A stretch of 28,614 bases of DNA from positions 1 to 28,614 of the forward strand of contig DAOVFL010000001.1 of NCBI GenBank assembly GCA_030672945.1, written 5' to 3'. The DNA comes from Candidatus Bathyarchaeota archaeon (lineage in GTDB: Archaea > Thermoproteota > Bathyarchaeia > Bathyarchaeales > Bathycorpusculaceae). The position numbers and the translations under genes are program-made. Below are positions 1-20,541 of this stretch, in pieces. The stretch's first letter is position 1. Every line of letters begins with the position of its first letter. Below the pieces are notes generated by a model, which worked only from the letters and a program-made list of their open reading frames with translations, did no database searches and was not told the origin of the DNA.

Positions 1-298
1 GGTAGATTATTCTGACCTTCCCTATAGTATCCGCCTCTTCAACAGTTTTATCGTCTCTTATACGGTTTATTCTGGCAAAACGCAGAGCCATACCGCACTT
101 GTATTTTGAGCTTTCTTGGATCTCATTATATAATACCTCGACAACTATTTTAGGAACTACAATAACCCTTCTACCTTCCTCTTTTATGGTCAATTCTTTA
201 AGCCGCTTAGTCATTTCAATGATCTCTACATCCGTCAACCCCTTGAAGGTTTTACCAACCATCATATACCTTCTTTTTTCAACATCACGAGCAGCTAA
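1..298 (-). pseudogene. lig: Out-of-frame C-terminal OB-fold of the same DNA ligase, open to the window edge
   Basis: Manual translation from 298 down: LAARDVEKRRYMMVGKTFKGLTDVEIIEMTKRLKELTIKEEGRRVIVVPKIVVEVLYNEIQESSKYKCGMALRFARINRIRDDKTVEEADTIGKVRIIY. It has no stops and contains motif VI (RFARINRIRDDK). Not in the ORF track. Confidence 0.9.
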
Positions 299-1686
299 GT
301 AATAATATCACTACCACACTTGGCTTTCAGATAATAATCTGAAAGCCATTCATGCCTTCGACCATAACCATATTCAGCTGCAACAATAACCAAATCCAAG
401 GGTTCAAGAACGGGTTTTATCTTAAGCCAACGTTTTCCACGAATCCCAGGCGTGTATTCACTGTCAAGTTTCTTAGCCACCAATCCTTCATGACCAGCAT
501 CTATTGCCTCTTCCAGAAACCTTTCAGCCCCTTCAACTCTATCTGTAACCAATTGTTCTGGCAACGATATTCCCTCAGCATTTTCAACTAAGATTTTTCT
601 TCGCTGTGTATATGGAAATGAAACTAGGCTTTCTCCGTCAATGTAAAGTATGTCAAACAGATAAAGCTCAACAGGTATCTTTTCAATTATGGCTTCTATG
701 TTGTGAACCCTTTTGAATCTACGCATCAAATGTTGGAATGGAATAGGATGACCCTGGATGTCAACGGCAATAACCTCACCCTCCAAAATCGCCTTTTCCA
801 CCTTCACGTTCTTTCGAACAATTTCAACGATTTCCGGCAGACCCACTGTCACATCTGTCAGTCTTCTACTAAAAATCCTCACCTCATCACCACATTTGTG
901 AATTTGAACCCTTGCACCATCCAGTTTATACTCGAAAGCTGTTTCGCCACCATGCTCCTTCAAGGCTTCAGCAACATCACTTGCCGTCTGAGCCAACATA
1001 AGCCCAACAGGTCTAAGAACCCCAAACCCAACCTTCAATAAGGCATCTTCACCCTGCCTTTTTGCTATGGCAGCAACCTCTCCCACATTACCCAATGTCA
1101 TAGTTGCCTTCTGAACCGTTTCCAATGGAATCTGGAAAGCTTTGGAAACCGCCTGCTCCATCAAGCCTTCGTAAAAACCAGTTCTCATCTCACCTATCAA
1201 TATCTTAACTAGAAATTTCGCTTCAAGCGGTGACGCTAGACTTAAAAGGGTTGCTATGAGCCGTTCTTTCTTCACCCTTGAGCCCGACCCAACGGTTTCA
1301 GTTACAGCCTTAAAACTGTGCTTAACCTCCAGTATCGTCATTTTTCTCTCAAAAAGTGTTGACTGCTTGCCAACTTTGCTGATCTCAAAGAGTATTTTTG
1401 TTGCTGAGCCTACATCGCCAGTTTTTCCAAATGCTTCTGTGAAGGCTTTCCAGTCGGTCTTTGTTATGCGTTTTACTATTTCGCTAAGGGTTGCCCAGCT
1501 CACATCAAGGGTTTGTTGACTCCATTTTGGGAAAGGTCTTCCAAGAACCATGGATACAGCTGGTTCAACTTCTTCCACTTCTAAATCATTTAGGAAATCT
1601 GCAACGAAGCTTACCATAAGAAGCCGTTTGTTTGTTGTTTCAAGTTTTTCGCAAAGTTCCGCCAAAGCTTTGAAGGGTGTAGGCAT
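295..1686 (-). CDS. lig: ATP-dependent DNA ligase, N-terminal part (DNA-binding and adenylation domains), ended prematurely by a 32-nt insertion
   Basis: Motif I EYKLDGAR with catalytic Lys, ILEGEVIA, LYLFDILY, HEGLVAK, motif V RWLKIK. The ORF ends ..WLSDYY then LKAKCGSDIIT*, which derives from the insertion. Confidence 0.95.
   Translation of the reverse strand: MPTPFKALAELCEKLETTNKRLLMVSFVADFLNDLEVEEVEPAVSMVLGRPFPKWSQQTLDVSWATLSEIVKRITKTDWKAFTEAFGKTGDVGSATKILFEISKVGKQSTLFERKMTILEVKHSFKAVTETVGSGSRVKKERLIATLLSLASPLEAKFLVKILIGEMRTGFYEGLMEQAVSKAFQIPLETVQKATMTLGNVGEVAAIAKRQGEDALLKVGFGVLRPVGLMLAQTASDVAEALKEHGGETAFEYKLDGARVQIHKCGDEVRIFSRRLTDVTVGLPEIVEIVRKNVKVEKAILEGEVIAVDIQGHPIPFQHLMRRFKRVHNIEAIIEKIPVELYLFDILYIDGESLVSFPYTQRRKILVENAEGISLPEQLVTDRVEGAERFLEEAIDAGHEGLVAKKLDSEYTPGIRGKRWLKIKPVLEPLDLVIVAAEYGYGRRHEWLSDYYLKAKCGSDIIT
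300..348. repeat. 7-bp direct repeat (taataat at 300-306 and 332-338) plus a perfect 12-bp inverted repeat (321-332/337-348) marking the insertion in lig
   Basis: tggctttcagat-aata-atctgaaagcca. Deleting 32 nt between the direct repeats restores SDYYLAARD. Confidence 0.9.
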
Positions 1687-2318: not shown

Positions 2319-3047
2319 GTGAAAATTTGTGATGTTCATGTTCATTTAGGAAAATCGGGACCATGGCAACCGTACGTGAAACCATCAATGTACGTGGATA
2401 AGCTCATACACTTATTTAAAAAATACAATGTTGAACGAGCTGTCGTTTTCCCAAATCCAAATGTTGGCGACAAATACCCCAAAATGAACGATTACATTGC
2501 AGACTGCGTAAAGAAGCATCCAAACCGCCTAATTGGTTTTGGACGGGTAGATCCGAGAAGAGAAGACGCTGCGGAAGAGTTGAATCGCATAAAAAACAGT
2601 TTAGGCTTAGCCGGGCTTAAATTGCATCCGATGGTGGAGTGTTTCAGACCAGATCATCCCTTCTTTGAAAAGTTCTTTGAAAAAATTAATGAACTGAAAC
2701 TTCCAGTGCTCTTTCACACGGGAACTGGATTTTCCTCACCAGGGTTAATCCTAAAAATCGCTAAGAAACATCCGAAGTTACCAATAATTTTAGGTCATTT
2801 AAGAGAAGCCGCCGTTAACGCTTTAGGAATGGCTGAGAACATTTATGTTGAAACTTCTGGCACTTTACCAGAGTTCATCGAGCTTTCAGTGGACATAGAT
2901 GAAGACAGAGTATTATTCGGCTCTGATGTTCCATATTACCGTTATCCCGTCCAGATAGCAATTGTGAAGGCAGCGGAAATCTCTCGAAAGGCGAAAAGAA
3001 AAATCTTCTACGAAAACTTTCAAAATCTGTTTATTAAAAAAGAATAA
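2319..3047 (+). CDS. Metal-dependent amidohydrolase (Amidohydro_2 TIM barrel)
   Basis: DVHVH, GLKLHP, VLFHTG, ILGH and VLFGSDVP give a complete metal-ligand set. GTG start after a purine-rich RBS. Confidence 0.9.
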   Translation: MKICDVHVHLGKSGPWQPYVKPSMYVDKLIHLFKKYNVERAVVFPNPNVGDKYPKMNDYIADCVKKHPNRLIGFGRVDPRREDAAEELNRIKNSLGLAGLKLHPMVECFRPDHPFFEKFFEKINELKLPVLFHTGTGFSSPGLILKIAKKHPKLPIILGHLREAAVNALGMAENIYVETSGTLPEFIELSVDIDEDRVLFGSDVPYYRYPVQIAIVKAAEISRKAKRKIFYENFQNLFIKKE

Positions 3048-3080: not shown

Positions 3081-4481
3081 ATGTCACTTAAATGTATTCA
3101 ATGCGGTTCAAAATCTCCACCTTATCCGCCAAAAAGCATGTGTGAAAAATGCGGAGGAATATTGGAATATGAGATTATTCTACAAAATAAACATAAGATC
3201 AAGTTTTCTGGCAAGCTTCGTTTTTGGAGGTATAGGGCGTTACTTCCTCCTGTAAGTAATATTATGAGTTTAGGTGAAGGTGGAACACGTCTACATAAGG
3301 CTAAGAGGCTTGCCAAAAAAGTTGGGTTGAATGATCTTTATCTAAAGGACGAAACCAGAAACCCAACCAACTCTTTTAGAGATCGTGCAGCAGCACTTCT
3401 AACTACAAATGCAATAGATCTTAAACATGACACATTAATCTGTGCAACCAACGGAAACCTAGGTGCTTCCTTAGCTGCCTATTCTGCAAAGGCTGGGTTA
3501 ATCTGTAATGTAATTGTTCCCAAACTTGTTGACGTTGGAAAACTGGCTCAAATGCTCGTCTACGACGCTGCCATTGAAGAGTTCGGAGTAACAGTCGACG
3601 ACTCCATAATCAGAGCTGAAGCTTTAGCCAAAGAAACTGGCTGGTATCAAGCAACCGCAGAGCTAAATCCGCTTGTAATTGAAGCACAGAAAACAATTTC
3701 CTATGAAGTCTATGAGCAGTTTGGTGTTCCAGACTGGCTTATAGTTTCCATGGGAGGAGGCGGAACCATATACTCAATATGGAAAGGCTTCAAAGAACTT
3801 GAACAGCTCGGAATAACGAATTCCATGCCAAGAATGATCGGAGTCCAACCTAAGGGATGCGCCCCCATAACTAGAACATTACTGGAAGGTCATTTCCAAC
3901 CATTAAAAATTTCGAAGCCATCTACCCGTGCACTGGCTGTACTAGTAGCTCACCCTCTTCAAGGCGAACTAGCTATAAAGGCGATAAAAGAATCAGACGG
4001 CTTGACTTTAACAGTTTCCGACTCTAAGATCTTCACAGCAGAACTTCAGATAGCTAAACTCGAAGGAATATTCGCTGAACCAGCAAGCTCTGCCACAATA
4101 GCAGCACTAAAAAAGCTTATCAAAGAAGAGCAAATCAGCAAAAATGAAAGTGTTGTATGCCTCATCACTGGAAGCGGACTTAAAGCCACAAATGTACTAC
4201 AAGCATTAACCAAAAAACAGAAGACAGCTGTTCTAGGCTTAGACATAAGCACAAAAGAAAAAATACTTCGAATCTTAAGCATAAAAGACACATACGGGTA
4301 TAACGCGTGGAAAAAACTGGGAAAAGTTATAACAAGAGCGGCCATATACCAACACCTAAACGAGCTCTCAGAAAAAGGACTAGTAGTAGGCTACGGAAAA
4401 AATGGAAAAAAATTCTTCAAAATAACAGAACGCGGTAAGAAAGTTCTACGTGCAATTGATGATATAAAACTTCTACTTTAA
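3081..4481 (+). CDS. Threonine-synthase-like fold-type II protein with Lys-to-Arg at the PLP site, fused to a C-terminal PadR-like winged HTH
   Basis: N-terminal CxxC..CxxC, SLGEGGT, NPTNSFRDR (canonical NPTGSFKDR), TNGNLG, SMGGGGT, EPASSA, TGSGLK. Residues ~391-466 read YGY..TRAAIYQHLNELSEKGL..FKITERG. Confidence 0.9.
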   Translation: MSLKCIQCGSKSPPYPPKSMCEKCGGILEYEIILQNKHKIKFSGKLRFWRYRALLPPVSNIMSLGEGGTRLHKAKRLAKKVGLNDLYLKDETRNPTNSFRDRAAALLTTNAIDLKHDTLICATNGNLGASLAAYSAKAGLICNVIVPKLVDVGKLAQMLVYDAAIEEFGVTVDDSIIRAEALAKETGWYQATAELNPLVIEAQKTISYEVYEQFGVPDWLIVSMGGGGTIYSIWKGFKELEQLGITNSMPRMIGVQPKGCAPITRTLLEGHFQPLKISKPSTRALAVLVAHPLQGELAIKAIKESDGLTLTVSDSKIFTAELQIAKLEGIFAEPASSATIAALKKLIKEEQISKNESVVCLITGSGLKATNVLQALTKKQKTAVLGLDISTKEKILRILSIKDTYGYNAWKKLGKVITRAAIYQHLNELSEKGLVVGYGKNGKKFFKITERGKKVLRAIDDIKLLL

Positions 4482-4492: not shown

Positions 4493-4522
4493 TAATTAGT
4501 ATAGTTACAACTATACTAATTA
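4493..4522. promoter_or_regulatory. Perfect 30-bp palindrome, candidate operator upstream of the ECF S-component gene
   Basis: taattagtatagtt-ac-aactatactaatta: two 14-bp arms with a 2-bp spacer, ending 8 nt before the ATG at 4531. Confidence 0.7.
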
Positions 4523-4530: not shown

Positions 4531-5277
4531 ATGACCAGAGAAAAAGAAATATCTCCTTTCAACTTGGCGATTACGGCTGTCTTCACTGCACTCGTTTGTG
4601 TCGCAACAATGACGTTTTCCATTAATGTTCCTGCGACACGAGGTTTCTTCAATATAGGTGAATCGATGGTTTTTCTCTCCGCCCTCCTTTTCGGGCCTTT
4701 CGTTGGAGCTTTCGCCGGAGGAATAGGCTCCATGCTGGCTGATCTGCTGTTAGGCTTCCCGCATTATGCACCGGCTACGCTTATCATCAAGGCTTGTGAA
4801 GGCGCCTTCGTAGGAGCACTTAAGAAAAGAAATCCAAGGTTCAGTTCCAAACTTGAATGGAAATTCTTCACGCTGATCTTAGGTGTTGTTGCTGGTTTCT
4901 TACTGGGTTGGGTTGGCATGTCTTACTATAGTGGTGATGTAGAACTCAGCTTGGGTTCAAGTTCATTCATGTTCTATCTTCCAGCAGAGTTCTGGTTATT
5001 TCTCGGAGTCATAACTTCTCTGTCCATAATATTCTTAGGCTTCTTAGCTGATCCAGAGTTCGGTTGGACAGTTTTCTCAGTGATCACCGGTGGTTTCATC
5101 ATGGTTTTAGGATACTTCCTATACCAACAGTTCTTCATAGGCCCACTTTTCAACATTGAAGCTGTAGCCATAGCAGAAATACCAATAAATATCGGACAAA
5201 TGATTATAGGTGCAACAGTGGCATTACCAATAGCCAAAATAATTTGGCGAGCGCTCCCATACCTGAAAAAGAAATAA
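4531..5277 (+). CDS. ECF transporter S-component (HmpT/PdxU2/DUF1393-like) with an internal hydrophobic insertion
   Basis: AxxxA in TM1 (AVFTA), GFFNIGE, GPFVGAFAGGIGSMLADLLLG, YAPATLIIK..EG, NIGQMIIG. Polytopic, 248 aa. Confidence 0.85.
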   Translation: MTREKEISPFNLAITAVFTALVCVATMTFSINVPATRGFFNIGESMVFLSALLFGPFVGAFAGGIGSMLADLLLGFPHYAPATLIIKACEGAFVGALKKRNPRFSSKLEWKFFTLILGVVAGFLLGWVGMSYYSGDVELSLGSSSFMFYLPAEFWLFLGVITSLSIIFLGFLADPEFGWTVFSVITGGFIMVLGYFLYQQFFIGPLFNIEAVAIAEIPINIGQMIIGATVALPIAKIIWRALPYLKKK

Positions 5278-5301: not shown

Positions 5302-6351
5302 ATGAGAGGGACAAATAGTTTGCATCTTCCTTTTGGAAAAATTCCCATAGACATTCTTCAGGAAGTTGTTTTCAAAAATCTGGGTGCGAAACGCACAGAA
5401 GTTGTTTTAGGTCCTGCCGCTGGGTTTGATGGCGCCGTCATAGACGTTGGAGATAAATCCATAATAGTTTCTACGGATCCTATTACTGGTGCAACAGAGC
5501 GAATTGGTTGGCTCGCCGTAAACATTAACGCAAATGATGTTGCCACATTCGGTGTTGAACCAGCATTCTTCTTATCATCCATCTTACTTCCTGAAAATGC
5601 AGATAAGAATACCGTTGAAACGATATGTATTCAAATGGATAAGTCTTCAAGAGATTTAGGGATGGCTATTGTTGGAGGACATTGCGAAGTAACTCCCAAA
5701 CTGACCAATCCAATAATTGTAGGCTGTGCTATGGGCATAACAGAAAAAGGAAACTACGTAACAGCGGGTGGAGCTAGGATTGGAGACAAGCTTATATTGA
5801 CCAAGAGTGCAGGAATCGAAGGCACAGCAATTCTGGCAGTGGATAGAGAAAAGCAATTGAAGAAAGCATTAAGTTCCACTATACTACGGAATGCCAAGAA
5901 ATTCTATGACCAAATAAGCGTGGTCAAAGATGCATCTGAAGCCATCCAAACACAAGGAGTTAATGCTATGCATGATCCAACAGAAGGCGGTGTGACCGGA
6001 GGAATCCATGAAATGGCAGATGCATCAAATCTAGGTGTAAAAATCATCGAGAAAGAAATTTCAATCCAACCAGAAACAGTTAAAATCTGCGAATTCTTTA
6101 AAATCGACCCACTACAACTAATAAGTTCTGGAGCCTTACTGATTTCCGCCAAACCAAACCTCGCAAACAAGGTAGTCAGAAGGTTAGAGCAATCCCACAT
6201 TCATGCCTCTATCATTGGGGAATTCGTGGAAAACCCGCAAGATCGCCTATTAGTAAAGGAAAATGGACGTATTCAAACCTTGCCAAGACCTGTTTCCGAC
6301 CATCTTTGGCTTATCATTCAAAGAGAGAAGGATTATTGGAAAAATGTGTGA
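5302..6351 (+). CDS. AIR-synthase (PurM/HypE/ThiL/SelD) superfamily protein
   Basis: GFDGAV, STDP, NINANDVAT, VGGHCE, GDKLILTK, AMHDPTEGG, SSGALL. Exact substrate is not assignable. Confidence 0.85.
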   Translation: MRGTNSLHLPFGKIPIDILQEVVFKNLGAKRTEVVLGPAAGFDGAVIDVGDKSIIVSTDPITGATERIGWLAVNINANDVATFGVEPAFFLSSILLPENADKNTVETICIQMDKSSRDLGMAIVGGHCEVTPKLTNPIIVGCAMGITEKGNYVTAGGARIGDKLILTKSAGIEGTAILAVDREKQLKKALSSTILRNAKKFYDQISVVKDASEAIQTQGVNAMHDPTEGGVTGGIHEMADASNLGVKIIEKEISIQPETVKICEFFKIDPLQLISSGALLISAKPNLANKVVRRLEQSHIHASIIGEFVENPQDRLLVKENGRIQTLPRPVSDHLWLIIQREKDYWKNV

Positions 6352-11234: not shown

Positions 11235-12680
11235 TTAGCCTCCAAACACTTTTCTGAAAGCTGGGTACATTTCAGCAGCTCTTTCCCGCATTAATATCTC
11301 ATAATACTGATAAATTATTCCGACAGAAAGCAGAATGCCCATTCCAGAACCGAAAACTCCAAAAAAGTCTGAAACACCAGCAATCAACGCTACGACTATC
11401 CCGCCAAGAATTGTGACAGTAGGAATGTAACGTTTAAGAATAGATTCAACAGCCCTTCCAGATCGCCTGTACCCTGGAATCTGCATACCTGCACCTACAA
11501 GTTGTTTTGCTACTGTCGATGGATCTAAACCGCCAACTTCAAGCCACGTAAGCGAAAAAACAACACAAAAAGCAACAAGAATCCCAAGATATACCAAAGC
11601 CTTGAAAGGATCTCCCATTACACCTGTAAAACTTCGTGGCGAAATCACATAATACACGAGTCCGCCTACAGGTGTAAGGCTTTCTTGGCCAACCTCCCCA
11701 ATCCATTCAAACTGCCCCATAAGATCAAGCCAGAAATTGGTTCCTGGAGGAGGTTGGCCACTCATGTTCCAGAAGATTTGGGAAAAGAAGTACACATTAG
11801 CGAAAAGTGCGGATGCAAAGATTACTGGAAGGTTGGATACGTATAAAAGTTTTATTGGATATCGACTGCGGAAGCCCTTGTAGCCAGCGTATGACAGCGG
11901 TAATTCAAGTTTCACTCCTTCCATGTACATGATTATCAGAAAAGCAGCAACTGTGACCATGAGCCCGAGTATAGAAGGGTTTTGACCTCTAAGTAACAGC
12001 ACAGTGACTGGTTCACCGACAGATAGAACTTGAGCTAAAGCTATAAAAATGCCATAGCTTCTAGGTTCACCTATGGCTATCGTAGGGGAAAAACATTGCC
12101 AGAAAATTCCCTGTGCAACCCCACCCATGATGAACAGGCTTATTCCGCTTCCGAATCCCCAACCTTTTTGAACCAGTTCATCCAACATTAGAACAATCAG
12201 CCCAGCTGCTAAGAGTTGAAGGAAAATAATTATAGATATTGTGCCAGGTAAGCTTTCACCGGGTGCATTATACATTCCACCAATTATGTATGCAGATGCT
12301 TGAACCCCCGTGAGAACTATGGAGAAGACTTTACTGGCTGTCGTGAATAGACTTCTATCTTCAGGACGTGACATGTCACAGTCTATCATTGATGAGCCAA
12401 CTAAAAGCTGTAGTATTAACCCTGCTGTGACTATTGGACCGATACCAAGTTCCATGAGGGTCCCACGACTGGAAGCAAAAATTATTCTGAGAGCAGCGAG
12501 CTCTCCAAGCTGTGTTGTTTTAATACCGTATAGGGGAATTTCAGTCATTATTAAGTAGATAATGAGAACTAATGCTGTCCAGAAAAGTTTTTCATTAAAT
12601 CGTACTTTACGTTCCGGAACCTTAATTTCCGGAACAATCCTAGCAATGGATTTAAATAGACTTAGAAACCTGCCAGCCAT
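11235..12680 (-). CDS. secY: Preprotein translocase SecY (Sec61 alpha)
   Basis: GTLMELGIGPIVTAG, GFGSGISLFI, YPIKLLYVSNLPVI, IPGYR, GSGMGILL. Confidence 0.98.
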   Translation of the reverse strand: MAGRFLSLFKSIARIVPEIKVPERKVRFNEKLFWTALVLIIYLIMTEIPLYGIKTTQLGELAALRIIFASSRGTLMELGIGPIVTAGLILQLLVGSSMIDCDMSRPEDRSLFTTASKVFSIVLTGVQASAYIIGGMYNAPGESLPGTISIIIFLQLLAAGLIVLMLDELVQKGWGFGSGISLFIMGGVAQGIFWQCFSPTIAIGEPRSYGIFIALAQVLSVGEPVTVLLLRGQNPSILGLMVTVAAFLIIMYMEGVKLELPLSYAGYKGFRSRYPIKLLYVSNLPVIFASALFANVYFFSQIFWNMSGQPPPGTNFWLDLMGQFEWIGEVGQESLTPVGGLVYYVISPRSFTGVMGDPFKALVYLGILVAFCVVFSLTWLEVGGLDPSTVAKQLVGAGMQIPGYRRSGRAVESILKRYIPTVTILGGIVVALIAGVSDFFGVFGSGMGILLSVGIIYQYYEILMRERAAEMYPAFRKVFGG

Positions 12681-12683
12681 GGA

Positions 12684-13133
12684 TTATCCGCTACTCTTCA
12701 GCTTATCTAATTCTTCTACGATTTGTCCATTAGCACTTCTTATTTTTTCAGCTGCTGACCTTGAACAGTATGGCACCTTCACAATCAGAGGTGTTGTAAC
12801 GTTGCCTGTGCCTAAAAGTTTTACGTAGCCGAGGTTTTCAAGGTCTATGAAGAATTTACCCTCTTCCTTTCTTATCGAGAGTTTCTCAGCCATTTCATCT
12901 AGCACTCCAACATTTATGATATTCTTTTTTCGCCTTAGACTTTTAGGTGAAGTGAAACCTCTCTTACCGAAATAGTCCGGTTCATATTTTATCACGTAGG
13001 TCCATTTGTGTTTATGGAACCCTGCCTTCCCATGACCTCCTCTCGATCCTCCTGCTCTATGCTGACCTACTCTGCCGTAACCGTGAGTTCTTGAACCACG
13101 TTGTTTTCTGATTTTTCGAAGTCTATGAGGCAT
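12684..13133 (-). CDS. rpl15: Ribosomal protein uL15
   Basis: RKQRGSRTHGYG..HR..GSRGG.G.AG..KHKW, FGKRGF, KLLGTG. Confidence 0.97.
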   Translation of the reverse strand: MPHRLRKIRKQRGSRTHGYGRVGQHRAGGSRGGHGKAGFHKHKWTYVIKYEPDYFGKRGFTSPKSLRRKKNIINVGVLDEMAEKLSIRKEEGKFFIDLENLGYVKLLGTGNVTTPLIVKVPYCSRSAAEKIRSANGQIVEELDKLKSSG

Positions 13134-13135
13134 TT

Positions 13136-13618
13136 TCAGCCAGCTACCTTGTCAATAGTTTTTCCTTCAAGAGCCTTATCTAATTGTATTTTGAGCACAC
13201 CGTTCTTATATGATGTATGCACGATGTCTGGAATCACTCTTTTAGGAAGATTTAAACTTTTATAATATCTCCGATTTGAAGCCTCAGCAGATAAGATTAA
13301 CCGTTGATCTTTCACATGAATTTTAAGATCTTCTTTTTCAAACCCTGCGAATTCCGTAACAACTATTATTTTATTCTTTTCTTCAAAAACGTCGACTAGA
13401 GGTTCACGCTTCCGCCATTTTCTTCCTCTACGGGCTTTCAAAAGATTATGTTTATAGTAATATGTTCCCCTTTTAGTTCTTGTATTATTAACCCGGTGTA
13501 GTTTAGGAGTCTTTTTGTTCTTAACTCTACCGAAGTCTCTGGAAATGTGAAATCGTTTTGAACCTTTTTTATGTCTTCGCCATCTCGCGCTCAAATATGC
13601 CTTCTCCTTGACTAACAT
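13136..13618 (-). CDS. Hsp20/alpha-crystallin-family protein with a highly basic N-terminal region
   Basis: REPLVDVFEE..VVTEFAG..KEDLKI..YYKSLNLPKRV..SYKNGVLKIQLDK. Its stop is 2 nt from the uL15 start. Confidence 0.85.
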   Translation of the reverse strand: MLVKEKAYLSARWRRHKKGSKRFHISRDFGRVKNKKTPKLHRVNNTRTKRGTYYYKHNLLKARRGRKWRKREPLVDVFEEKNKIIVVTEFAGFEKEDLKIHVKDQRLILSAEASNRRYYKSLNLPKRVIPDIVHTSYKNGVLKIQLDKALEGKTIDKVAG

Positions 13619-13660
13619 GGCATTTAAAAAGTAACTATAAAATGTATCGCATACAAAAAT

Positions 13661-13668
13661 GTTTAAAA
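13661..13668 (-). promoter_or_regulatory. Putative internal TATA box (TTTTAAAC) upstream of hsp20
   Basis: Lies in a 57-nt AT-rich gap within an otherwise tightly packed operon. Same octamer as upstream of lig. Confidence 0.5.
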
Positions 13669-13675
13669 TTGTGGT

Positions 13676-14164
13676 TCAGGTCATCCGCTTTATTAATTCA
13701 TTGATTTTTTCTCTACGATATCCAAGTTCGCCACCCATGCCATAGCCCTTCTTTACCTTTCCTTTGAAGCCTTTAGTTGGTGGATGTAGCCTAAAGACTG
13801 GTTTCACATCGGAAAGTTTCCAGTAGTCAGCATGGCAGTTAAATATTGCGTCCATGAGCTCTTCTAAAGATCTGTAACCATTTTCCTGTGCATACTTGTC
13901 TGTTAACTTCTTGTTGCCAAGAAGTTTTCCCCTTTCTTTTATCATCATGCTTACAGTTTCCATTGAGGCTTCACCCCAAGTGATGAAGTTTTGCGCCGTT
14001 TTCAACATTCCCAGGAATGAAGGTCGGTTATCAATTAAAACTGCATAGTTATTTCGTGCCAAGTTAAGCATTTGAAGGGTCCCCCTTACCTGCCGTGAGG
14101 CCCTAATTGTTCCTCGGATTCTCACAGCTACTAAGCATTTACGTTCTTTCACTTCTTCAGTCAC
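13676..14164 (-). CDS. rpl30: Ribosomal protein uL30
   Basis: AVRIRG, TLQMLNL, FRLHPPTKGFKG, GYRREKINELIKRM. Confidence 0.97.
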   Translation of the reverse strand: MTEEVKERKCLVAVRIRGTIRASRQVRGTLQMLNLARNNYAVLIDNRPSFLGMLKTAQNFITWGEASMETVSMMIKERGKLLGNKKLTDKYAQENGYRSLEELMDAIFNCHADYWKLSDVKPVFRLHPPTKGFKGKVKKGYGMGGELGYRREKINELIKRMT

Positions 14165-14806
14165 TTATCTCACCCAATCCATTGGTGTTATGAGGCTGTA
14201 TGTTCTCTTTAAGGCGTCAAAAACAGCGTATGCAAAAGATGGAACAGTTCTCGTTGAACCGTAACTTCTACTCCAGCAATCCTTTATGCCTGCAAGTCCA
14301 AGAATGACCTTTGCCACTTCACTTGCTACAAGACCTAAACCTCTTGGTCCTGGAAGAAGAACGATTCTCACGCCACCGCATTTCCCTTCAACTTTGAACT
14401 GCACTGAATGTGGTCTTCCACAACCGCATTTCCAGCTTCCACAACCTCTTCTAACAGGGACCAGATTTAATCGAGCATCCACCGCAGCCTTCTCTATAGC
14501 TGCCCGTACCTGTCTTGTTTTTCCAAAACCCAAACCAATGTAACCGTCCCTGTTTCCAACTGCAACCATTGCCTTAAACCTTGATTTTTCACCGGCATCT
14601 GTCTGTTTTTGAACCAGATTTACATCTATGACTTCTTCTTGAAGGCCTGGAAGCAAAGTATCTACAATTTGTGGTTCACGTATCCTCAGGCCTTCCATAA
14701 ATATTTCTTCAATAGATGCGATTCTGCCCTCTTGTATCATCTTACCAAGGCGTGTTTTAGGAACCCACCTTTCAAGACCTTCCAACGTTCTACGTGAACG
14801 TCTCAA
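14165..14806 (-). CDS. rps5: Ribosomal protein uS5
   Basis: [40 protein letters not shown]. Confidence 0.98.
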
Positions 14807-15408
14807 GCCTTTTTACCTCCATCGAGCGAAGCAGTTATATCCTTTTTGATTCTTGCAAAATGTTTAGGAAACCTTTCGGGAGCCAGTTTCTTCTCAAGAT
14901 ATTTTGAAAATCTAGTTTGATATTCTTCGGTGTTAGAAGTTAGAGTTTTCGCGTACTTCACAATATGCTCACCCTTTATCCTTTCTTCATCTGGAAGCTT
15001 CTCTTCACCATGAGGCACATTTACTCCAGCATCTAAAACACCCTTCAAAGCTGCAAAAACTCTTGCATTTCTTGTAGGAGAATGTAATCCTATGTCTAGA
15101 ATTGCTTCCTTTATACCTTTTGCTTTGGCTTTTAATCCGCAAAGAAGACCGGTTAAGTAGGATGCTGGAATGTTTCCTCTTGGAGCTTTCCACCCATGGT
15201 TTCTTGCAAGCTCTTTGCTATGCGCTGAAACTATGATCTCGTCCCCGTGAGGTTTAGCTATAATTATTTGCACAATCGTGTTCTTAAGTGAAACACGAGT
15301 GACCAATCTTGGTTTTCCAGAAAGCAACAGTGCTTTTCTTGCCTTGTAATCTGTTTTTCCTTCTCTTCTTCTTCGGAACGGAACACAATAGCGTGGCCCC
15401 TTTGCCAT
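14803..15408 (-). CDS. rpl18: Ribosomal protein uL18
   Basis: [39 protein letters not shown] overlap with eL19. Confidence 0.98.
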
Positions 15409-15863
15409 CAGCGTTTCCTCCAAAGTTCGTGCGTCTTCAAGTAACGCACCATGTCGGCGACGGACCCGAACCTTCCACTACTCGCCATCTTGTACGTGTT
15501 CCGATAAGTATTTTCAGTGATCATTCTGTTGGTTTTCAATTCACGAAGTTTCTTTCTCAAGGCTCGAATCTTGCTCATCCAAGCTTCTTTCTTGGAGATT
15601 TTTGCGTGGGATGAACTACTTCTGCTGCCTGGTCCACGTCGTCGTCCCTTTTTTTTCTTTTCATGTAAAATTCGCGCTCTTGCACGGCTTACACCTTTTT
15701 CTGGAAGCCGTTTAATGATTTCTTCATGGATTAATCTTCGAATCTCCTCTCTAGTTATAGCTACTTCCACATCATCCATCCTTTCAGGATTTATCCAAAC
15801 CCGATTCTGCCCAACTTTCAATATTTGTGCTGCCAGACGCCGCTGATTCTTTAGACTTGTCAT
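15408..15863 (-). CDS. rpl19e: Ribosomal protein eL19
   Basis: [43 protein letters not shown]. Confidence 0.98.
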
Positions 15864-16393
15864 CGCTTTTCTGCCCTCTTCTCACGTTTCTTGCTCTTCA
15901 TTTGTCTGCGTCTTATTTTTCCTTTTTCAGCTACTTTCGTTACTTCTTCCGCTTCTTCTGTCTCCTTTTCTTCTTCCACAGTTACTTCCTTAGCTTCTTT
16001 AAAATTCAGAATTTTTGCTTTTCTTTTTCTCGCTTCAACAATAATTCTAGTCCTTTTTCTTTTACCAACAGCATGTGCAATTCTTATGGCTTGAGCTTTG
16101 AAGTTGATTCCTTTAAGTTCTTCAACGTTGTGTACTATGACTTCTTTGTAGCCTGATGGGTGAAGACCTCTTGCAGCTTTTGGACTTCTGTATCCAACGC
16201 TCACGGTTGGCGGCCAACCTTTAATTTTCCTTCGCATTTTGTTGTCTATTCCTCTTGGCCTACGCCAGTTCTCCTTTAAGCGTTTGTATCTCCAGCTTTC
16301 CTGCCTAACAAATTTGGGTTTCTTCTTTTTTATGAGGGCCCTCAGTTTCAATGCTTTGCTTAAAGCAGCTGAGTCATGTTCCGTCATTGTCAT
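15860..16393 (-). CDS. rpl32e: Ribosomal protein eL32 with a ~45-aa charged C-terminal tail
   Basis: KPKFVRQESWRYKRL..WRRPRGIDNKMR, RGLHPSG, RIAHAVG. Confidence 0.97.
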   Translation of the reverse strand: MTMTEHDSAALSKALKLRALIKKKKPKFVRQESWRYKRLKENWRRPRGIDNKMRRKIKGWPPTVSVGYRSPKAARGLHPSGYKEVIVHNVEELKGINFKAQAIRIAHAVGKRKRTRIIVEARKRKAKILNFKEAKEVTVEEEKETEEAEEVTKVAEKGKIRRRQMKSKKREKRAEKR

Positions 16394-16938
16394 TCATCTG
16401 TTCCCTCGCTTTTTGCGTTAATGTATATACCGTCTAAGAAAACACGTGGATCTTTCCTTTTCACTCTGGTTCCTTGCTCGATATTAGCAGCTGTTTGACT
16501 TACATCTTCCAGGTTTGCGCCTTGAACGATTATGTCTTCACCTTGAACTTTGACGTGAACATTACCCATTATTTTGATTTTTCTTGGACTTCGTTCACCT
16601 GTGAAATTTTCAATTAGTATAATTTTGTCCTTAACTTTGACTGATATCGGAAAGTGAGAGAAAACTATTTTTAGCTTGTACGTGAAGCCTTTTCTGACTC
16701 CTGTAATCATATTTTGGATGTGTGAATAAATGGTGCCTACTAGAGCTGCCTCTTTTTTCCTTGGCCAATCAGCCCATATACGGATCATCTTCCCTTCAAG
16801 CTTGATTGATATTGGAGCGTGAGAAAAGTTTCGGATTAACGTGTCTTTTTGTCCTTTAACTGTAACTTTCCGGCTTTCTACTGAAACCTCTACGTCATCG
16901 GGAATTTGAATAATTTTGAATACTTCTATAGCTCGCAT
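16390..16938 (-). CDS. rpl6: Ribosomal protein uL6
   Basis: IPDDVEV, HIQNMITGV, HFPI, NFTGER, KDPRVFLDGIY. Confidence 0.98.
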   Translation of the reverse strand: MRAIEVFKIIQIPDDVEVSVESRKVTVKGQKDTLIRNFSHAPISIKLEGKMIRIWADWPRKKEAALVGTIYSHIQNMITGVRKGFTYKLKIVFSHFPISVKVKDKIILIENFTGERSPRKIKIMGNVHVKVQGEDIIVQGANLEDVSQTAANIEQGTRVKRKDPRVFLDGIYINAKSEGTDE

Positions 16939-16952
16939 TTAAGGCACCTTTT

Positions 16953-17336
16953 CTAATAAGCGAATGCTAATAGTCTGCCTCCAACGTGTTTTTCCTTTGC
17001 CTCCTTGTGAGAGAGAACGCCCTTTGGGGTTGAGACAACTAGTATGCCTACTTCTCTTGATGGGAGGAAATTCCTTTCCCATTCTTCAAATTTGTCTACT
17101 TTAACTGGGAATCGAGGTCTAACGGCCCCACACTTGTTTATTCTTCCTAGAAGTTGAACCTTGAACTTTCCGGAGCGGTCGTCATCAATGAATTCGAATT
17201 CTCCAATGTAACCGTTTAATTGCATAATCCTTAGAACTCTACCTAAAAGTTTGGAGGCTGGTTTAATCACGCATTCACGTTTGTTACGTGTCTCATTATT
17301 TATGATCGTTGTCAAACCGTTTGCTAAGGTGTCCAT
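16953..17336 (-). CDS. rps8: Ribosomal protein uS8
   Basis: [33 protein letters not shown]. Start at MDTL (17336). Confidence 0.98.
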
Positions 17337-17349
17337 CTTAGTTTCCTCA

Positions 17350-17514
17350 TTATTCATACTTTTTAAATCCGAGTTGTTTAGCTACTTCTCTGAAACATTG
17401 TCGGCATAAATATAAATTGTAGCGTCTAATAACAGGTCCATAAGACCCACATCTAACGCATCGTCTTGTTCCTTTCCCATATTTTCTTTCTTTTTCAAGT
17501 TTCTTTTTGTCCAA
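17350..17514 (-). CDS. rps14: Ribosomal protein uS14 (Zn-binding type)
   Basis: Below the ORF-track cutoff. Manual translation from TTG: [54 protein letters not shown]. Confidence 0.95.
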
Positions 17515-17531
17515 ACCCGTTTCTCCCTTAA

Positions 17532-18071
17532 CTATACTATCTCAATTCCCAAAGCATCTTTAACAAATACAATGGCTTCTTCCGTTGTTAAGATGTGTTT
17601 CGAACCGATTTTTGCTTTTTCTCTCCGCCTTCTTTTAACACGATATCCGGGGCGACTGAGAGAAACGCATACATCCATGCCGAAGATGCCGATTTCAGGT
17701 TCATATTTTACTCCCGGAATTTCAATATGTTCCTTTACGCCGAAGGAGAAGTTACCATACTTATCAAAGCAATTCTTTGAGAGTTTATTGTCGATGACCG
17801 GCAAAACTTTTTTTATGAATTCTATTGCCCTCTGCTTTCTAAGCGTTACAACGCAGGATATAGGTTCGCCTTTTCTTATTCCAAAGTCTCTGATAGTTTG
17901 CTTAGCATTTCTCTTGTTTGGATTTTGACCTGTTAACTCTCTCAGAACCCTTACAGCTTTTTCTAGTGGTTCCCCTGATTTCCCAACGCTGATGTTAATG
18001 ACACTCTTTTCAATTCTCGGTTTAAGCATAGGGTGTTCTTTCCATCTCTTTAGCAACTCACCCTCAGACAA
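17532..18071 (-). CDS. rpl5: Ribosomal protein uL5
   Basis: [38 protein letters not shown]. Confidence 0.98.
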
Positions 18072-18072
18072 T

Positions 18073-18831
18073 TTAGGCTGCCTCCAGCATAGATATTAAT
18101 GGTTGTTTTTCACCTATTACAAAAATGAAATTCAGAATTGTTTGGTAACTATTTTCTCCTTTGTCCTTAATCGTTACAATGGCGTTTCTACGCTTCTTTC
18201 CCTTCGTCTTTTCAATTTTAATTATCTCACCATATTTTCCGATGTTTTTTCCACTTATTATTAACCCAAAATGTTTTTCTTTCATTTCTATCTGCTTCAG
18301 GATTTGTCTTTCTGGCAAACTTATTTTCAAAGTATCTAGAGTATTGTAGACAACATCTCCTGAGTTCTTTGTATCGGTAATATTAACTAGTATGTTCGAA
18401 CCGTCATGCAGATTAAGTTGCATAAGCCCGTTTCTAACAACATTTTTGTTTGTAATTCTACACAGCTTGAAGTTTGATTCTTCCTTGTTGATCGGGTGAA
18501 GGATTAAACCCTTTTTGGATCGCAGTATGCGAAAGCATTCATCAACATCTGAAATGGAAATAACATCCATTAACCCCACAGGAAAGTTGTCTTTTCGCCT
18601 AACTTTTCCATCTACATGTACTTTTCCCTGTGAAACTATTAGTTTAGCCTCTTTTCTTGTTTTGGCGAACTTGAGAATGTCACGCAGAACTATGGCTAAT
18701 GGTAAGCAGTTTTCAAGAGAATGCGGTCCAGGGGATGGCTTTACAACCCAGAGGAACTCTTTCCTATGAATTGGCCAGAACCTCGGTGCGGGTTTACGTT
18801 TTAATCCTGTGGATGCTTCCTTTCTACCCAA
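18073..18831 (-). CDS. rps4e: Ribosomal protein eS4
   Basis: LKRKPAP.FWPI.RK, PGPH, VDGKVR, FPVGLMD, QLNLHDG.N. Confidence 0.98.
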   Translation of the reverse strand: MGRKEASTGLKRKPAPRFWPIHRKEFLWVVKPSPGPHSLENCLPLAIVLRDILKFAKTRKEAKLIVSQGKVHVDGKVRRKDNFPVGLMDVISISDVDECFRILRSKKGLILHPINKEESNFKLCRITNKNVVRNGLMQLNLHDGSNILVNITDTKNSGDVVYNTLDTLKISLPERQILKQIEMKEKHFGLIISGKNIGKYGEIIKIEKTKGKKRRNAIVTIKDKGENSYQTILNFIFVIGEKQPLISMLEAA

Positions 18832-18832
18832 A

Positions 18833-19489
18833 TCATTTTCCTCCTTTAGTTTTCTTGGTTGTTCTACGCCTAACCCTTGTTTTCTTCGTTTTCGGCTTCT
18901 CTTCCTTCCTGGTTTCTATGGGTTTCTTTTTCCTCGTTTTTTTTGCTTGTCTAGGTTTCTTTTGTTTTTCTTCTGTTTTATTTTCCGTTGGCGTCTTCGT
19001 TGCTGTCTTTTTTCTTCTTTTTGGTTTCTTTTTCAGAACTTTCTCTTCTACAGCCTCTTTTATTTCGGTAACCTCTTCTAGAAGAGGTTTTTCTGTAACC
19101 TTCTCTATTTTCTGGAGAGCCTTCCTTTTCCTTTCCAAAACTTGCTTTCGCCACTTATCCTTAAGATTCAACGTTATTATCATAATCTTTGAAGGGTGAA
19201 TGGGAAGGAATATTGCGGTTCCATCAGCTTTTTCTCGTGTCAACCCTTCAACGTAGATTCTATATTTTCTTCTGTCTACACGAGTAACTTTCCCTTCAAA
19301 TCCTTTACGGTCTCCTCGCATTATGCGAACTGTATCTCCGCTTCTAACTGGTAGAGTTCGTAATCCATGTGAGGTTTTAAGTTCTGGTGAGAGGGATGCC
19401 CCAAAATGTTTGTGGCGTATGTGGTCTGGTGCTTGGAAAAGCATTTTTCTTTGTTTTGTTGGTTTCGTTACAGGTTTTGTTGCATGCAT
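18833..19489 (-). CDS. rpl24: Ribosomal protein uL24 with a ~93-aa acidic-then-basic C-terminal extension
   Basis: PVRSGDTVRIMRG (KOW), IHPSK, DKWR. ATG 19489 follows a GGAGG RBS. Confidence 0.96.
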   Translation of the reverse strand: MHATKPVTKPTKQRKMLFQAPDHIRHKHFGASLSPELKTSHGLRTLPVRSGDTVRIMRGDRKGFEGKVTRVDRRKYRIYVEGLTREKADGTAIFLPIHPSKIMIITLNLKDKWRKQVLERKRKALQKIEKVTEKPLLEEVTEIKEAVEEKVLKKKPKRRKKTATKTPTENKTEEKQKKPRQAKKTRKKKPIETRKEEKPKTKKTRVRRRTTKKTKGGK

Positions 19490-19500
19490 GTTTTTTCCTC

Positions 19501-19941
19501 CTATATTATTATACTTGCTGCACTTGCTATTCTTGACCATCTTTCAGCAGCCTCTTTTGCTACTGGTCCGCGAATTTCTGAGCCTTTCATTTCGCCCTCA
19601 GGGGTTATTATTACTGCTGCATTATCTTCGAATTGGACCCAGACGCCGTCAGCTCTTCGGTAGGGCTTTCTTTGTCTTATGATTACTGCTTGGAAAATTT
19701 TTTTTCTCATGTCTGGTGTTCCACGTCTGACCGAGACAGTTATTCTGTCGCCTACTGCGCCTGATGGGACACGTCGTAAACGTCCTTTATAACCAATAAC
19801 TTGAATTAGCCTTATTTTCTTCGCTCCGGTGTTATCTGCACATATAAGAATCGAACCGACGAGTAACCCCCTTGAGATTTTTGGTCTTTGTCCAATCATT
19901 CCCCTGGCAATTAACGCTCTCGTTTTCGCCCTTGCAGCCAT
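19501..19941 (-). CDS. rpl14: Ribosomal protein uL14
   Basis: [32 protein letters not shown]. Confidence 0.98.
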
Positions 19942-19942
19942 T

Positions 19943-20260
19943 TCACTTCTCCTCCATCTTTTCGATAACAACAAATGACACTGTTTTGCCTATCGGGCGA
20001 CATTCAGATATTCTAACGCGGTTTCCTTCTTTTGCGTTTATGCATGGTGGATTGTGGCATGGGATGCGACTGTATCTTTTCTCATACCTCTTAAATTTTG
20101 GAACATAGTGAAGATAGTCACGTTTGACTATGACTGTTTTATCCATTTTGGCACTGGCGACCACACCTTCTAGGACATGACCCCTTATTGATAAGTCGCC
20201 GTGAAAAGGACAGTTTCTGTCGTTACACGTTTTTTTGGGTTTTTTGAAGGCCAGCGACAT
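19943..20260 (-). CDS. rps17: Ribosomal protein uS17
   Basis: [29 protein letters not shown]. Confidence 0.98.
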
Positions 20261-20541
20261 CACCATAACCTCATAACATGTTTTTTAAGGCGCGCTTCCG
20301 GTCGTCTCACAAGAAGTTTACCGTCAATTTCAACAGTTGTTCCATCAGAAAATGTGAAGTGAATAACAACTGAATTCTTTATGACTCTCTTTCTTTTTCC
20401 TTTACACGAAATTACGAATGTGTTTCTGGTTTCATCTATTATCTCGCCAGAGATTCCCACATACCCCTTATGTCTGCTTTCTGCAACCTTAGCTTTTGTT
20501 CCAATGAATTCGTAACGGATTATGTTTGGCGTTATCTTCAT
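20260..20541 (-). CDS. rnp1: RNase P protein component 1 (Rpp29/Pop4)
   Basis: EFIG, G.IIDETRNT, VEIDG.LL..RPE.RLK. Canonical position between uL29 and uS17. Confidence 0.95.
   Translation of the reverse strand: MKITPNIIRYEFIGTKAKVAESRHKGYVGISGEIIDETRNTFVISCKGKRKRVIKNSVVIHFTFSDGTTVEIDGKLLVRRPEARLKKHVMRLW

Follow-up and report, generated by a model that had tools for sequence, protein, structure and literature searches.

The window, by which we mean the whole 28,614-nucleotide stretch of bathyarchaeal DNA analysed here, carries a gene whose product has the fold of threonine synthase (ThrC) and lacks the lysine that makes that fold catalytic. Is this a damaged gene, an enzyme that works by other means, or a protein that has left catalysis altogether? 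We consider it likely, from sequence comparison and in the absence of any binding, ligand or expression data, that the gene encodes a non-catalytic repressor built on the ThrC fold that senses pyridoxal phosphate (PLP) or vitamin B6, and not a threonine synthase.

Two Pfam domains score over their cut-offs in the 466-residue protein, PALP (1.7e-72) and PadR (2.5e-7), and its parts are listed in Table 1. The AlphaFold2 (AF2) model has a pLDDT of 92.7 and a TM score of 0.88 against Bacillus subtilis ThrC, and the top Foldseek matches are threonine synthases (TM 0.82-0.89). The N-terminal Zn-ribbon forms two beta hairpins in the model, is common to the non-fused archaeal ThrC paralogue and has Cys24 conserved at a level of at least 90%; with the ribbon at the N-terminus, no match to a GntR-type domain was obtained in the protein. 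[quoted passage not shown]

Codon 100 (nucleotides 3378-3380, within ETRNPTNSFRDRAA) is AGA, and phmmer alignments to solved threonine synthases (2zsj, 2d1f, 6cgq) place the encoded arginine opposite the Lys of NPTGSFKDR, so that the reading frame and the alignment together confirm the loss of the Schiff-base lysine reported in the first-pass annotation. The motifs which that annotation listed as retained are present (TNGNLG 123-128, SMGGGGT 223-229, EPASSA 333-338, TGSGLK 363-368). Its description of an otherwise intact ThrC fold is correct for the fold and too generous for the motifs, since three more of them differ from bona fide ThrC in the same alignments: STGNT has become TNGNL, NPYR has become NPLV and GNAGN has become GGGGT. 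In bona fide ThrC, as in the Thermus thermophilus structures, these three motifs bind the substrate phosphate. Asn126 presumably corresponds to the ThrC ligand of PLP O3', the MGGGGT loop to the PLP phosphate-binding loop, and the Thr of TGSGLK to the residue that contacts the pyridine N1. All fold-type II enzymes depend on the Schiff-base lysine for their transaldimination and proton-transfer steps, and with arginine in its place the internal aldimine that all enzymes of the fold use cannot form.

Table 1. Features of the fused gene and its surroundings, in window coordinates.
Feature	Position	Strand	Evidence and remarks
Amidohydro_2 protein	2319..3047	+	Pfam 2.2e-29; 33 nt upstream of the regulator gene, same strand
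ThrC-fold/PadR-wHTH fusion gene	3081..4481	+	Open reading frame; 466 aa; candidate B6-responsive regulator
N-terminal Zn-ribbon	3087..3173	+	Cys5, Cys8, Cys21, Cys24; CIQCG...CEKCGG
Fold-type II PLP-enzyme domain	3267..4172	+	Residues 63-364; Pfam PF00291 spans 63-364 (1.7e-72)
Arg100 codon AGA, Schiff-base Lys position	3378..3380	+	Alignment, homologues, codon usage, contigs
Asn126, GN motif, retained	3456..3458	+	N in 91% of fused-clade members
Gly-rich loop MGGGGT	3750..3767	+	Residues 224-229; in the fused clade G225 95%, G227 100%
TGSGLK	4167..4184	+	Residues 363-368; in the fused clade T363 96%, G366 100%, K368 96%
Flexible linker	4212..4241	+	Residues 378-387; AF2 pLDDT <50
C-terminal PadR-type wHTH and terminal helix	4251..4475	+	Residues 391-465; PF03551, AF2
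Perfect 14+2+14 palindrome	4493..4522		Candidate operator (no binding data); ends 8 nt before the transporter ATG
ECF-type S-component, PF07155	4531..5277	+	Candidate regulated gene; Pfam 1.2e-32; synteny
AIR-synthase-related (PurM superfamily) protein	5302..6351	+	Pfam AIRS, AIRS_C; under all NCBIfam cut-offs; no equivalog

AAA and AGA are one base apart and the genome is a metagenome bin, 72% complete, which leaves room for the suspicion that AGA is a sequencing or assembly error or that the gene is a decaying pseudogene. We regard this as next to impossible. Position 100 is arginine in 120 of 120 homologues of 72-85% identity, and the Arg codons in 41 fused genes from the genomes of relatives include CGN codons as well (AGG 17, AGA 15, CGA 4, CGT 2, CGC 2). 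Contigs from four marine-sediment runs that cover the codon have it unchanged, though differing elsewhere; these runs may include the source sample, and none of the runs listed as holding the sequence is of RNA. The first-pass annotation had held that relatives or reads with AAA would overturn its reading, and the same homologues and contigs decide that point in its favour: homologues, synonymous codons and metagenome contigs between them rule out a single-base error at codon 100. A pseudogene, for its part, is contradicted by the open full-length frame, the confident model and the conservation of many positions.

The loss of the lysine follows the fusion to the wHTH. Among 150 representatives, all 68 non-fused relatives have Lys at position 100, and the fused proteins have Leu, Arg, Ile, Val, Thr, Met and others. 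Within the fused clade, Lys occurs in only two representatives (P0121, P0124); a further four Lys-bearing proteins, about 620 residues long and with a long C-terminal extension, group with the non-fused enzymes. Of the positions conserved in Lys-bearing relatives, position 100 alone is lost in the wHTH-fused clade, where Lys drops from 100% to 3%, while F99, D101, R102, G125, N126, G225, G227, E333, T363 and G366 are kept at 86-100%. By analogy with ThrC, we take these residues to line the PLP site. Apart from position 100, then, purifying selection maintains that site.

On the tree, the wHTH fusion has a single origin and now ranges over Bathyarchaeia, several Asgard lineages, Nitrososphaerota, Methanomethylicota, Thermococci and Desulfurococcales. 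The Arg subclade is fully supported (100/100), but support for separating the fused from the plain proteins is 96% by SH-aLRT and only 73% by ultrafast bootstrap. Arginine is ancestral and maintained in one subclade, drawn from Bathyarchaeia, Jordarchaeia, Thermococci and Desulfurococcales; a second subclade of fused proteins has L, I, V, M or T at the position, and two nested clades have K. The proposal that a selected pseudoenzyme would conserve Arg across distant taxa therefore holds for the first subclade and fails for the second and for the two Lys clades. Related genomes are not independent samples, and two of the proteins (P0121, P0122) lie on short Logan contigs with almost no gene context. 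The two nested Lys clades also mean that an aldimine is possible in some members, which might even have kept some chemistry; this counts against a uniformly non-catalytic family.

Could the protein nevertheless still be an enzyme, or a bifunctional enzyme-regulator, that uses PLP non-covalently, uses another Lys or needs no cofactor, with the wHTH providing feedback control? The Lys clades would suit such a protein, as would the high conservation of its pocket residues and a score that passes the TIGR00260 thrC cut-off (211 against 167), and bifunctional enzyme-repressors such as BirA, PutA and NadR exist. We nonetheless find it very improbable, because the catalytic position varies across the fused clade in a way that does not suit catalysis (R, K, L, I, V, M, T, S, F, Y, H, N, A), because no Lys is specific to that clade (K89, K154, K204 and K368 are equally conserved in plain enzymes), because no fold-type II chemistry dispenses with the lysine, and because a separate, normal Lys-bearing ThrC that passes NCBIfam NF005035 is encoded in the same genome. 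The protein scores below the cut-off of NF004170 (378 against 421), a model named 'threonine synthase' whose own basis is Lys-less fused proteins (P0137 reaches 799.6 bits), so that passing such models is no evidence of activity. None of four model archaea in a control set passes NF004170. Source databases likewise name the homologues 'threonine synthase', and together with the TIGR00260 score and the make-up of NF004170 this bears out the prediction that automated pipelines would mislabel the gene. The idea of a pseudoenzyme turned sensor, put forward in the first-pass annotation, thus gains support from comparative evidence: Lys was lost along with the wHTH fusion, the PLP-site positions were kept, and a Lys-type ThrC exists separately.

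That annotation named no ligand; the predicted regulon points to vitamin B6. Immediately downstream of the regulator gene lies an S-component gene that belongs to PF07155, as do the B6 transporters PdxU and PdxU2/HmpT (PMC9997740). Members of PF07155 carry other substrates too, and the family is named for riboflavin; the S-component of the window fits no NCBIfam equivalog. The AIRS-like gene that follows it is co-located with the transporter gene in many relatives. Upstream, the Amidohydro_2 protein has an 80%-identical homologue in the same place in one related locus (L081), and in two genomes (G085, G367) a 29%-identical homologue comes after a second S-component behind the palindrome discussed below, and we regard it as a probable accessory member of the module. 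Across archaeal phyla, a PF07155, AIRS-like or pdxST gene lies within 4 kb in 27 of about 36 fused loci, versus 0 of about 44 plain ThrC loci, and in a Nitrososphaerales locus (L157) pdxST and the fused gene point away from each other. Four fused loci (L098, L116, L133, L152) have only unrelated housekeeping neighbours (GatDE, FttA, ribose-5-P isomerase, a permease, topoisomerase).

We did not find pdxS in the window's own genome, which at 72% completeness does not establish its absence, so that the pdxS link rests on relatives. PdxS was found in only 9 of the 121 genomes of the order. Because the own genome and most of the order show no PdxS, the regulon here is probably an uptake/salvage module. 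Searches of the own, 72% complete genome for pyridoxal kinase (PF08543) and PNP oxidase (PF01243) returned nothing, while the PF08543 search, run over five genomes, gave matches of about 457 residues with a complete Phos_pyr_kin domain in three relatives, possibly of ThiD type. This kinase and oxidase picture is patchy over the five genomes, and the two families do not settle the salvage route.

A candidate operator connects the regulator with these genes. The 22-bp core of the palindrome (4497-4518, TAGTATAGTTACAACTATACTA) has the form TAGTATAGTT-NN-AACTATACTA and ends 12 nt upstream of the PF07155 gene. In the window's own genome (72% complete) the motif search finds a single site, and in the order the motif is matched in 39 of 121 genomes, versus 1 for the reversed control. 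Of the 16 sampled genomes that carry the fused gene 13 have the palindrome, and of the 18 that lack the gene none has. Sites directly upstream of an S-component gene number about 38. Five exact and two near-exact sites stand upstream of pdxS-pdxT, covering 7 of the 9 pdxS genes detected across the order, and further sites precede a second S-component with an Amidohydro_2 gene (two) or with an AIRS-like gene (one). One match, at locus L063 in genome G282, lies close to no gene recognisable as a B6 gene and is probably due to chance.

Since the site falls within the 49-nt gap 3' of the regulator stop codon and could form a 14-bp stem, it might instead be an RNA hairpin (a terminator or 5'-UTR element) or an unrelated promoter feature, the Lys-less protein being employed in some other, unknown role. 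We give this very little credence. The palindrome stays with the transporter gene across a gap of about 700 nt in two loci (L013, L015), recurs at unlinked pdxS promoters, is AT-rich without a following T-run, and tracks the fused gene in the counts above; moreover its two arms do not change in step, with 48 changes that break pairing against 7 that preserve it. Given where the site lies, what it is composed of, how its arms vary and where its unlinked copies occur, we reject the terminator or RNA hairpin itself.

It is harder to set aside a regulator of the same architecture with another ligand, such as an amino acid or phospho-amino acid inherited from ThrC (O-phosphohomoserine, threonine), a PLP-amino-acid adduct or HMP-P, the thiamine precursor that resembles PLP, for which the B6 genes would be only part of the targets. 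The domain descends from ThrC-like enzymes, and in eight loci of relatives (L022, L023, L029, L080, L086, L089, L090, L091) the fused gene has a Lys-type thrC upstream of it on the other strand, mostly adjacent and up to about 0.9 kb off in L090. Earlier assignments of PF07155 were to the transport of HMP and riboflavin (Pfam name; PdxU2/HmpT), and the AIRS-like neighbour is distantly ThiL-like. Even so we judge another ligand unlikely: the palindrome precedes pdxS-pdxT in most pdxS-bearing genomes and, among the sites in genomes of the order, was never found upstream of thrC or thiamine genes; the motifs that we presume to hold the substrate phosphate are altered; and the conserved positions are those of the PLP site. 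That the ligand is B6 remains an inference from the regulon and from the retained PLP-site positions only, the roles of which are assigned by analogy with ThrC.

If the protein is a B6-sensing repressor, we envisage it working as follows. The ThrC fold would dimerise, so that two wHTH domains could bind the two half-sites. The centre of the palindrome lies about 23-30 nt before the start codons, which is where the TATA/BRE elements of leaderless archaeal mRNAs would be, and a repressor bound at that position should keep TBP/TFB away and so prevent transcription. The pocket without its Lys may bind PLP or another phosphorylated B6 vitamer reversibly and non-covalently, and its occupancy would set the affinity for DNA; when B6 is plentiful, the cell would shut off its uptake and salvage, together with de novo PLP synthesis in genomes that have it. 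Arg100 probably contributes a positive charge near the cofactor O3'/C4'/phosphate. Within the subclade Lys has replaced Arg100 twice with the B6 gene context kept, and the sister subclade has L, I, V or M. We lean, by a little, towards extending this reading to the whole wHTH-fused and mostly Lys-less clade, as the master regulator of B6 (PLP) that has seemed to be missing from Archaea and that would sense free PLP non-covalently, with a regulon that would include an undescribed salvage route made of a PdxU-type S-component, a PurM-superfamily ATP-utilising enzyme and an Amidohydro_2 hydrolase.

The nearest functional parallel is bacterial. PdxR regulons comprise pdxST, pdxK and pdxU, and MocR regulators, to which PdxR belongs, are reported to be absent from Archaea (PMC5320631). 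The predicted regulon of the fused protein matches that content in pdxST and a PdxU-type transporter, and, like PdxR and other MocR proteins (GabR, TauR), the fused protein joins a sensor domain derived from a PLP enzyme to a winged helix and would act as a dimer on repeated boxes, which here are putative. The parts, however, are unrelated: MocR proteins use a fold-type I (aminotransferase) domain with an N-terminal GntR-type wHTH and keep the PLP lysine and its aldimine chemistry, whereas the fused protein has a fold-type II (ThrC) domain, a C-terminal PadR-type wHTH, an extra Zn-ribbon and no such lysine. With threonine synthase (EC 4.2.3.1) it shares the fold and evident common ancestry (35-37% identity, TM 0.82-0.89 to solved ThrC), and it departs from the enzyme in the absent Schiff-base Lys, the three altered motifs, the added C-terminal wHTH, its B6-gene neighbours in place of threonine-pathway genes, and the true ThrC paralogue in the same genome.

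Archaeal ThiR offers a parallel in design, since it fuses a DNA-binding domain to a ThiN domain, an inactivated biosynthetic-enzyme domain that senses the end product of the pathway. ThiR is likewise an archaeal vitamin regulator with an inactivated enzyme domain as its sensor, but the two differ in folds, ligand and regulon and are unrelated in sequence. Among PadR proteins the classical members are short, with about 110-180 residues, an N-terminal wHTH and one or more C-terminal helices for dimerisation. The fused protein resembles them in its PF03551 wHTH with a C-terminal helix and in its palindromic putative operator, and differs in that the wHTH is an appendage C-terminal to a 380-residue enzyme-derived ThrC-like module. 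Classical PadR proteins bind their effectors at the dimer interface (on the family, see PMC5728393). A full-text search, outside which most subscription journals fall, turned up no description of a ThrC-wHTH regulator or of a B6 regulator in Archaea, and novelty is unproven. By analogy, our best reading of the fused protein is as a putative archaeal counterpart of bacterial PdxR.

For databases, the consequence is that thousands of entries, and the NF004170 'equivalog', carry the label 'threonine synthase' for fused proteins, which inflates the threonine-biosynthesis capacity inferred in metabolic reconstructions. The scarcity of PdxS in the order suggests B6 auxotrophy in sediment Bathyarchaeia. 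If the proposed role is true, PLP sensors would have arisen separately in Archaea and in Bacteria, each from another PLP-enzyme fold, and the fused clade would show cleanly how, in nature, an enzyme turns into a sensor when one catalytic residue is given up and the cofactor pocket retained; genes for B6 uptake and salvage would then be predictable in uncultured archaea.

The fused protein, in which a Zn-ribbon and a threonine synthase (ThrC)-type PLP fold are followed by a C-terminal PadR wHTH, has as its likeliest function, and in our judgement quite probably, that of a B6-responsive repressor. phmmer alignments with three solved threonine synthases (2zsj, 2d1f and 6cgq) place the lysine of NPTGSFKDR against R100 of the query, confirming the first-pass annotation that arginine stands in place of the Schiff-base lysine; every motif listed there was likewise found. 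Its description of the ThrC fold as otherwise intact holds for the fold but not for the motifs: three of them differ from bona fide ThrC in the same alignments (STGNT to TNGNL, NPYR to NPLV, GNAGN to GGGGT), so that the changes in the active site go beyond a single residue. We take these motifs to be the holders of the substrate-phosphate ligands in T. thermophilus ThrC structures. The AlphaFold2 model, with a 78-sequence alignment as input, has a mean pLDDT of 92.7; threonine synthases are its top Foldseek matches in the PDB (TM 0.82-0.89 by target), and the added wHTH is absent from every solved chain matched.

Features of the fused regulator and its surroundings
Feature	Position	Strand	Remarks
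Regulator ORF	3081..4481	+	466 aa
Codon 100	3378-3380	+	AGA = Arg, within ETRNPTNSFRDRAA
PALP domain	residues 63-364		Pfam E 1.7e-72
Disordered linker	residues 378-387		AlphaFold2 model
PadR wHTH	residues 395-457		Pfam 31 bits, cut-off 27
Confident H-H-H-E-E-H wHTH	residues 391-465		AlphaFold2 model
Palindrome	4493-4522		perfect, 14+2+14; gap between regulator and S-component
PF07155 ECF S-component gene	4531-5277	+	49 nt after regulator
AIR-synthase-related gene	5302-6351	+	next after S-component
Amidohydro_2 gene	2319-3047	+	33 nt upstream of regulator
ATP-dependent DNA ligase ORF	295-1686	-	463 aa
Ribosomal-protein/SecY cluster, archaeal	11235-22643	-	looks like one, from ORF sizes and order only

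All 120 homologues at 72-85% identity, which are Bathyarchaeia proteins named 'threonine synthase' at source, carry the arginine as S[FY]RDR. Among 41 fused genes in relatives' genomes its codons are AGG (17), AGA (15), CGA (4), CGT (2) and CGC (2), and the use of both Arg codon boxes reflects long purifying selection on the residue. The codon is also unchanged in Logan contigs of four marine-sediment runs, which have dozens of differences at other places; the runs belong to one study, possibly including the source sample. The homologues, the two codon boxes and the four-run contigs exclude a single-base error at AGA.

Among the best 150 aligned of 1.84 billion representatives searched, position 100 is lysine in all 68 proteins without a C-terminal extension. 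Where an extension is present the residue is L (20), R (15), I (15), V (6), T (5) or M (4), with F, S, Y, N, A or H as single occurrences; lysine and wHTH occur together only in the representatives P0121 and P0124, and four ~620-aa proteins have lysine plus an unrelated extension. Fused proteins form one clade in the PALP-core tree, and an IQ-TREE run that left out the Lys column and included the named loci gives the wHTH fusion a single origin (support 73/96). Within it are an R-subclade (100/100) of the query, other Bathyarchaeia, Jordarchaeia, Thermococci and Desulfurococcales, and a hydrophobic subclade (96/92) of Thorarchaeota, Nitrososphaerota, Methanomethylicota and some Bathyarchaeia. 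Two K-bearing clades, one Bathyarchaeial and the other from Promethearchaeia and Hermodarchaeota, lie inside the R-subclade and would serve as natural 'R100K' variants; parsimony at this position gives three changes, with lysine lost once and twice restored by an R-to-K reversion through a single transition. (The nested K-bearing members are loci L093 and L094 with P0121, and P0124 with loci L099-L103; locus L007 has AAA.) Because lysine has been exchanged in twice and the sister subclade has hydrophobic residues, Arg100 is not essential to the common function.

K-bearing relatives are at least 80% conserved at ~65 positions, and the fused clade has lost one of these alone, position 100, at which lysine falls from 100% to 3%. 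The clade remains 86-100% conserved at N94, P95, T96, S98, F99, D101, R102, G125, N126, G225, G227, E333, T363, G366 and K368, a set that presumably includes the ring-stacking Phe, O3' Asn, phosphate loop and N1 Thr of ThrC structures. This conservation predicts a PLP-shaped pocket that is retained and a covalent anchor that is dispensable.

Contig 28 of the same genome (850 kb, 72%-complete) carries another PALP gene, whose 369-aa product contains NSTGSFKDR, has no wHTH and passes NCBIfam equivalog NF005035 (437 vs cut-off 301); by this assignment a real ThrC is predicted besides the fused protein. The latter is predicted not to function as a threonine synthase, since the lysine that defines the family is missing from it. 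It still passes TIGR00260, and the curated 'threonine synthase' equivalog NF004170 (PRK05638) spans the wHTH and matches a Lys-less, Arg-bearing fused protein, P0137, end to end (799.6 bits, cut-off 421), so that mislabelling is built into the annotation models. The expectation that pipelines would call such proteins threonine synthase is borne out by these matches and by the homologues' source names; as far as sequence can tell, the name spread by NF004170 is probably wrong. Several relatives (L022, L023, L029, L080, L086, L089, L090, L091) have a Lys-bearing thrC (EGENPTGSFKDRGM, ~40% identical) in divergent orientation shortly upstream of the fused gene. The pair may go back to the duplication from which the regulator arose, or may be co-regulated; the thrC side of those loci showed no palindrome.

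The core of the palindrome, TAGTATAGTT-NN-AACTATACTA, is conserved directly before the S-component start as the remaining spacer diverges, and stays there even with ~700 nt between regulator and S-component. The 22-mer is unique in the window's genome and, allowing up to three mismatches, in four near-complete relatives; a fifth, G148, the only one of the five with PdxS, has a second copy 17 nt before pdxS-pdxT. When 121 genomes of the window's order were scanned with the degenerate pattern TANTNNAGTTNNAACTNNANTA, 39 matched (~48 sites), versus one genome for the reversed control. Neighbouring genes, assigned by tblastn and Pfam, place ~38 sites immediately before the S-component gene that adjoins the regulator, five directly upstream of pdxS-pdxT (G148, G313, G101, G336, G348), two upstream of a second S-component followed by a 29%-identical Amidohydro_2 homologue (G085, G367) and one before another PF07155 gene that has an AIRS-like gene behind it (G288); one site, in G282, has no recognisable neighbour and is probably a chance match. 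Only 9 of these 121 genomes encode PdxS (7 of the 87 of high quality), and none was found in the window's own 72%-complete genome; in 7 of the 9 the palindrome, exact or with one mismatch, precedes pdxS at the equivalent position. Dependence on imported B6 may be common among these sediment Bathyarchaeia.

Of 34 genomes of the order sampled for both gene and palindrome, 16 have the fused gene, 13 of them with the palindrome, and 18 lack the gene, none of them with the palindrome, a contrast that holds within genera g3 and g4 too; as related genomes are not independent, no statistical test was applied. The element does not fit an RNA stem, as its arms vary independently: differences at the free positions break pairing in 48 cases and keep it in 7, and of 31 distinct sites just 3 are perfect palindromes. 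Such variation fits a dimeric protein reading two DNA half-sites. Upstream of pdxS at locus L165 (G352:C176, ~position 1365) is a degraded look-alike with 13 of 20 core bases, which may, on weak evidence, be a decayed operator; in G352's family none of the 25 genomes sampled gave a palindrome match, and 4 sampled for ThrC-like proteins gave none at E <= 1e-20.

The order regulator, S-component and often AIRS-like gene is kept in relatives down to ~47% identity. The AIRS-like (PurM-superfamily, AIRS/AIRS_C) protein falls under every NCBIfam equivalog cut-off (HypE 135 vs 252, ThiL 99 vs 184, SelD 80 vs 125), and in many genomes its gene lies behind the palindrome together with that of the PF07155 transporter (also L073:3000-3879 and L136), so that it could catalyse an as yet undescribed, ATP-dependent reaction in B6 salvage. 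The Amidohydro_2 gene adjoins the regulator in the window and in L081 (80% identity), with L065 and L066 as further loci cited; its product, of unknown substrate, may be part of the regulon. Farther upstream, the ligase ORF lacks the C-terminal OB domain, and its syntenic counterparts in L005 and L006 encode 564 aa with DNA_ligase_A_C, which fits a separate first-pass claim of a disruption near 300-348.

Among the GTDB species genomes scanned, the fusion occurs in Bathyarchaeia, Jord-, Prometh-, Hermod- and Thorarchaeota, Nitrososphaerota, Methanomethylicota, Thermococci and Desulfurococcales. A PF07155 S-component, AIRS-like gene or pdxST lies within 4 kb, downstream, convergent or divergent, at 27 of ~36 fused loci (pdxS-pdxT is divergent in the Nitrososphaerales locus L157), and at none of ~44 plain K-type ThrC loci. 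The S-component also adjoins the K-bearing fused genes of Asgard archaea, so gene context is independent of the residue at the site.

Lysine loss with wHTH fusion, the kept pocket, the operator-like site and its B6 gene targets support the initial reading of a pseudoenzyme turned sensor. Beyond these features and the domain anatomy, which the data establish, the mechanism is inferred. The ThrC fold would probably serve as the dimerisation interface, placing two wHTH domains on the palindrome, whose centre ~23-30 nt before start codons is where TATA/BRE would be expected for leaderless transcripts; with the palindrome occupied, initiation would be blocked. The proposed ligand is PLP or a different phosphorylated vitamer, binding reversibly in the pocket that lacks lysine; that it acts as co-repressor rather than inducer is a guess from homeostatic logic.

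Described prokaryotic B6 transporters include PdxU and PdxU2/HmpT, both COG4720/PF07155 (PMC9997740), and PdxR regulons comprise pdxST, pdxK and pdxU (PMC5320631), so that the regulon inferred here mirrors that of PdxR. MocR regulators are absent from Archaea (PMC5320631). The fused regulator has no domain in common with PdxR: its fold is type II rather than type I, its wHTH is PadR-type and C-terminal rather than GntR-type and N-terminal, a Zn-ribbon is added and the lysine is absent. A PLP-fold sensor fused to a wHTH is of a kind already known, and the present variant is, by the literature searched, new.
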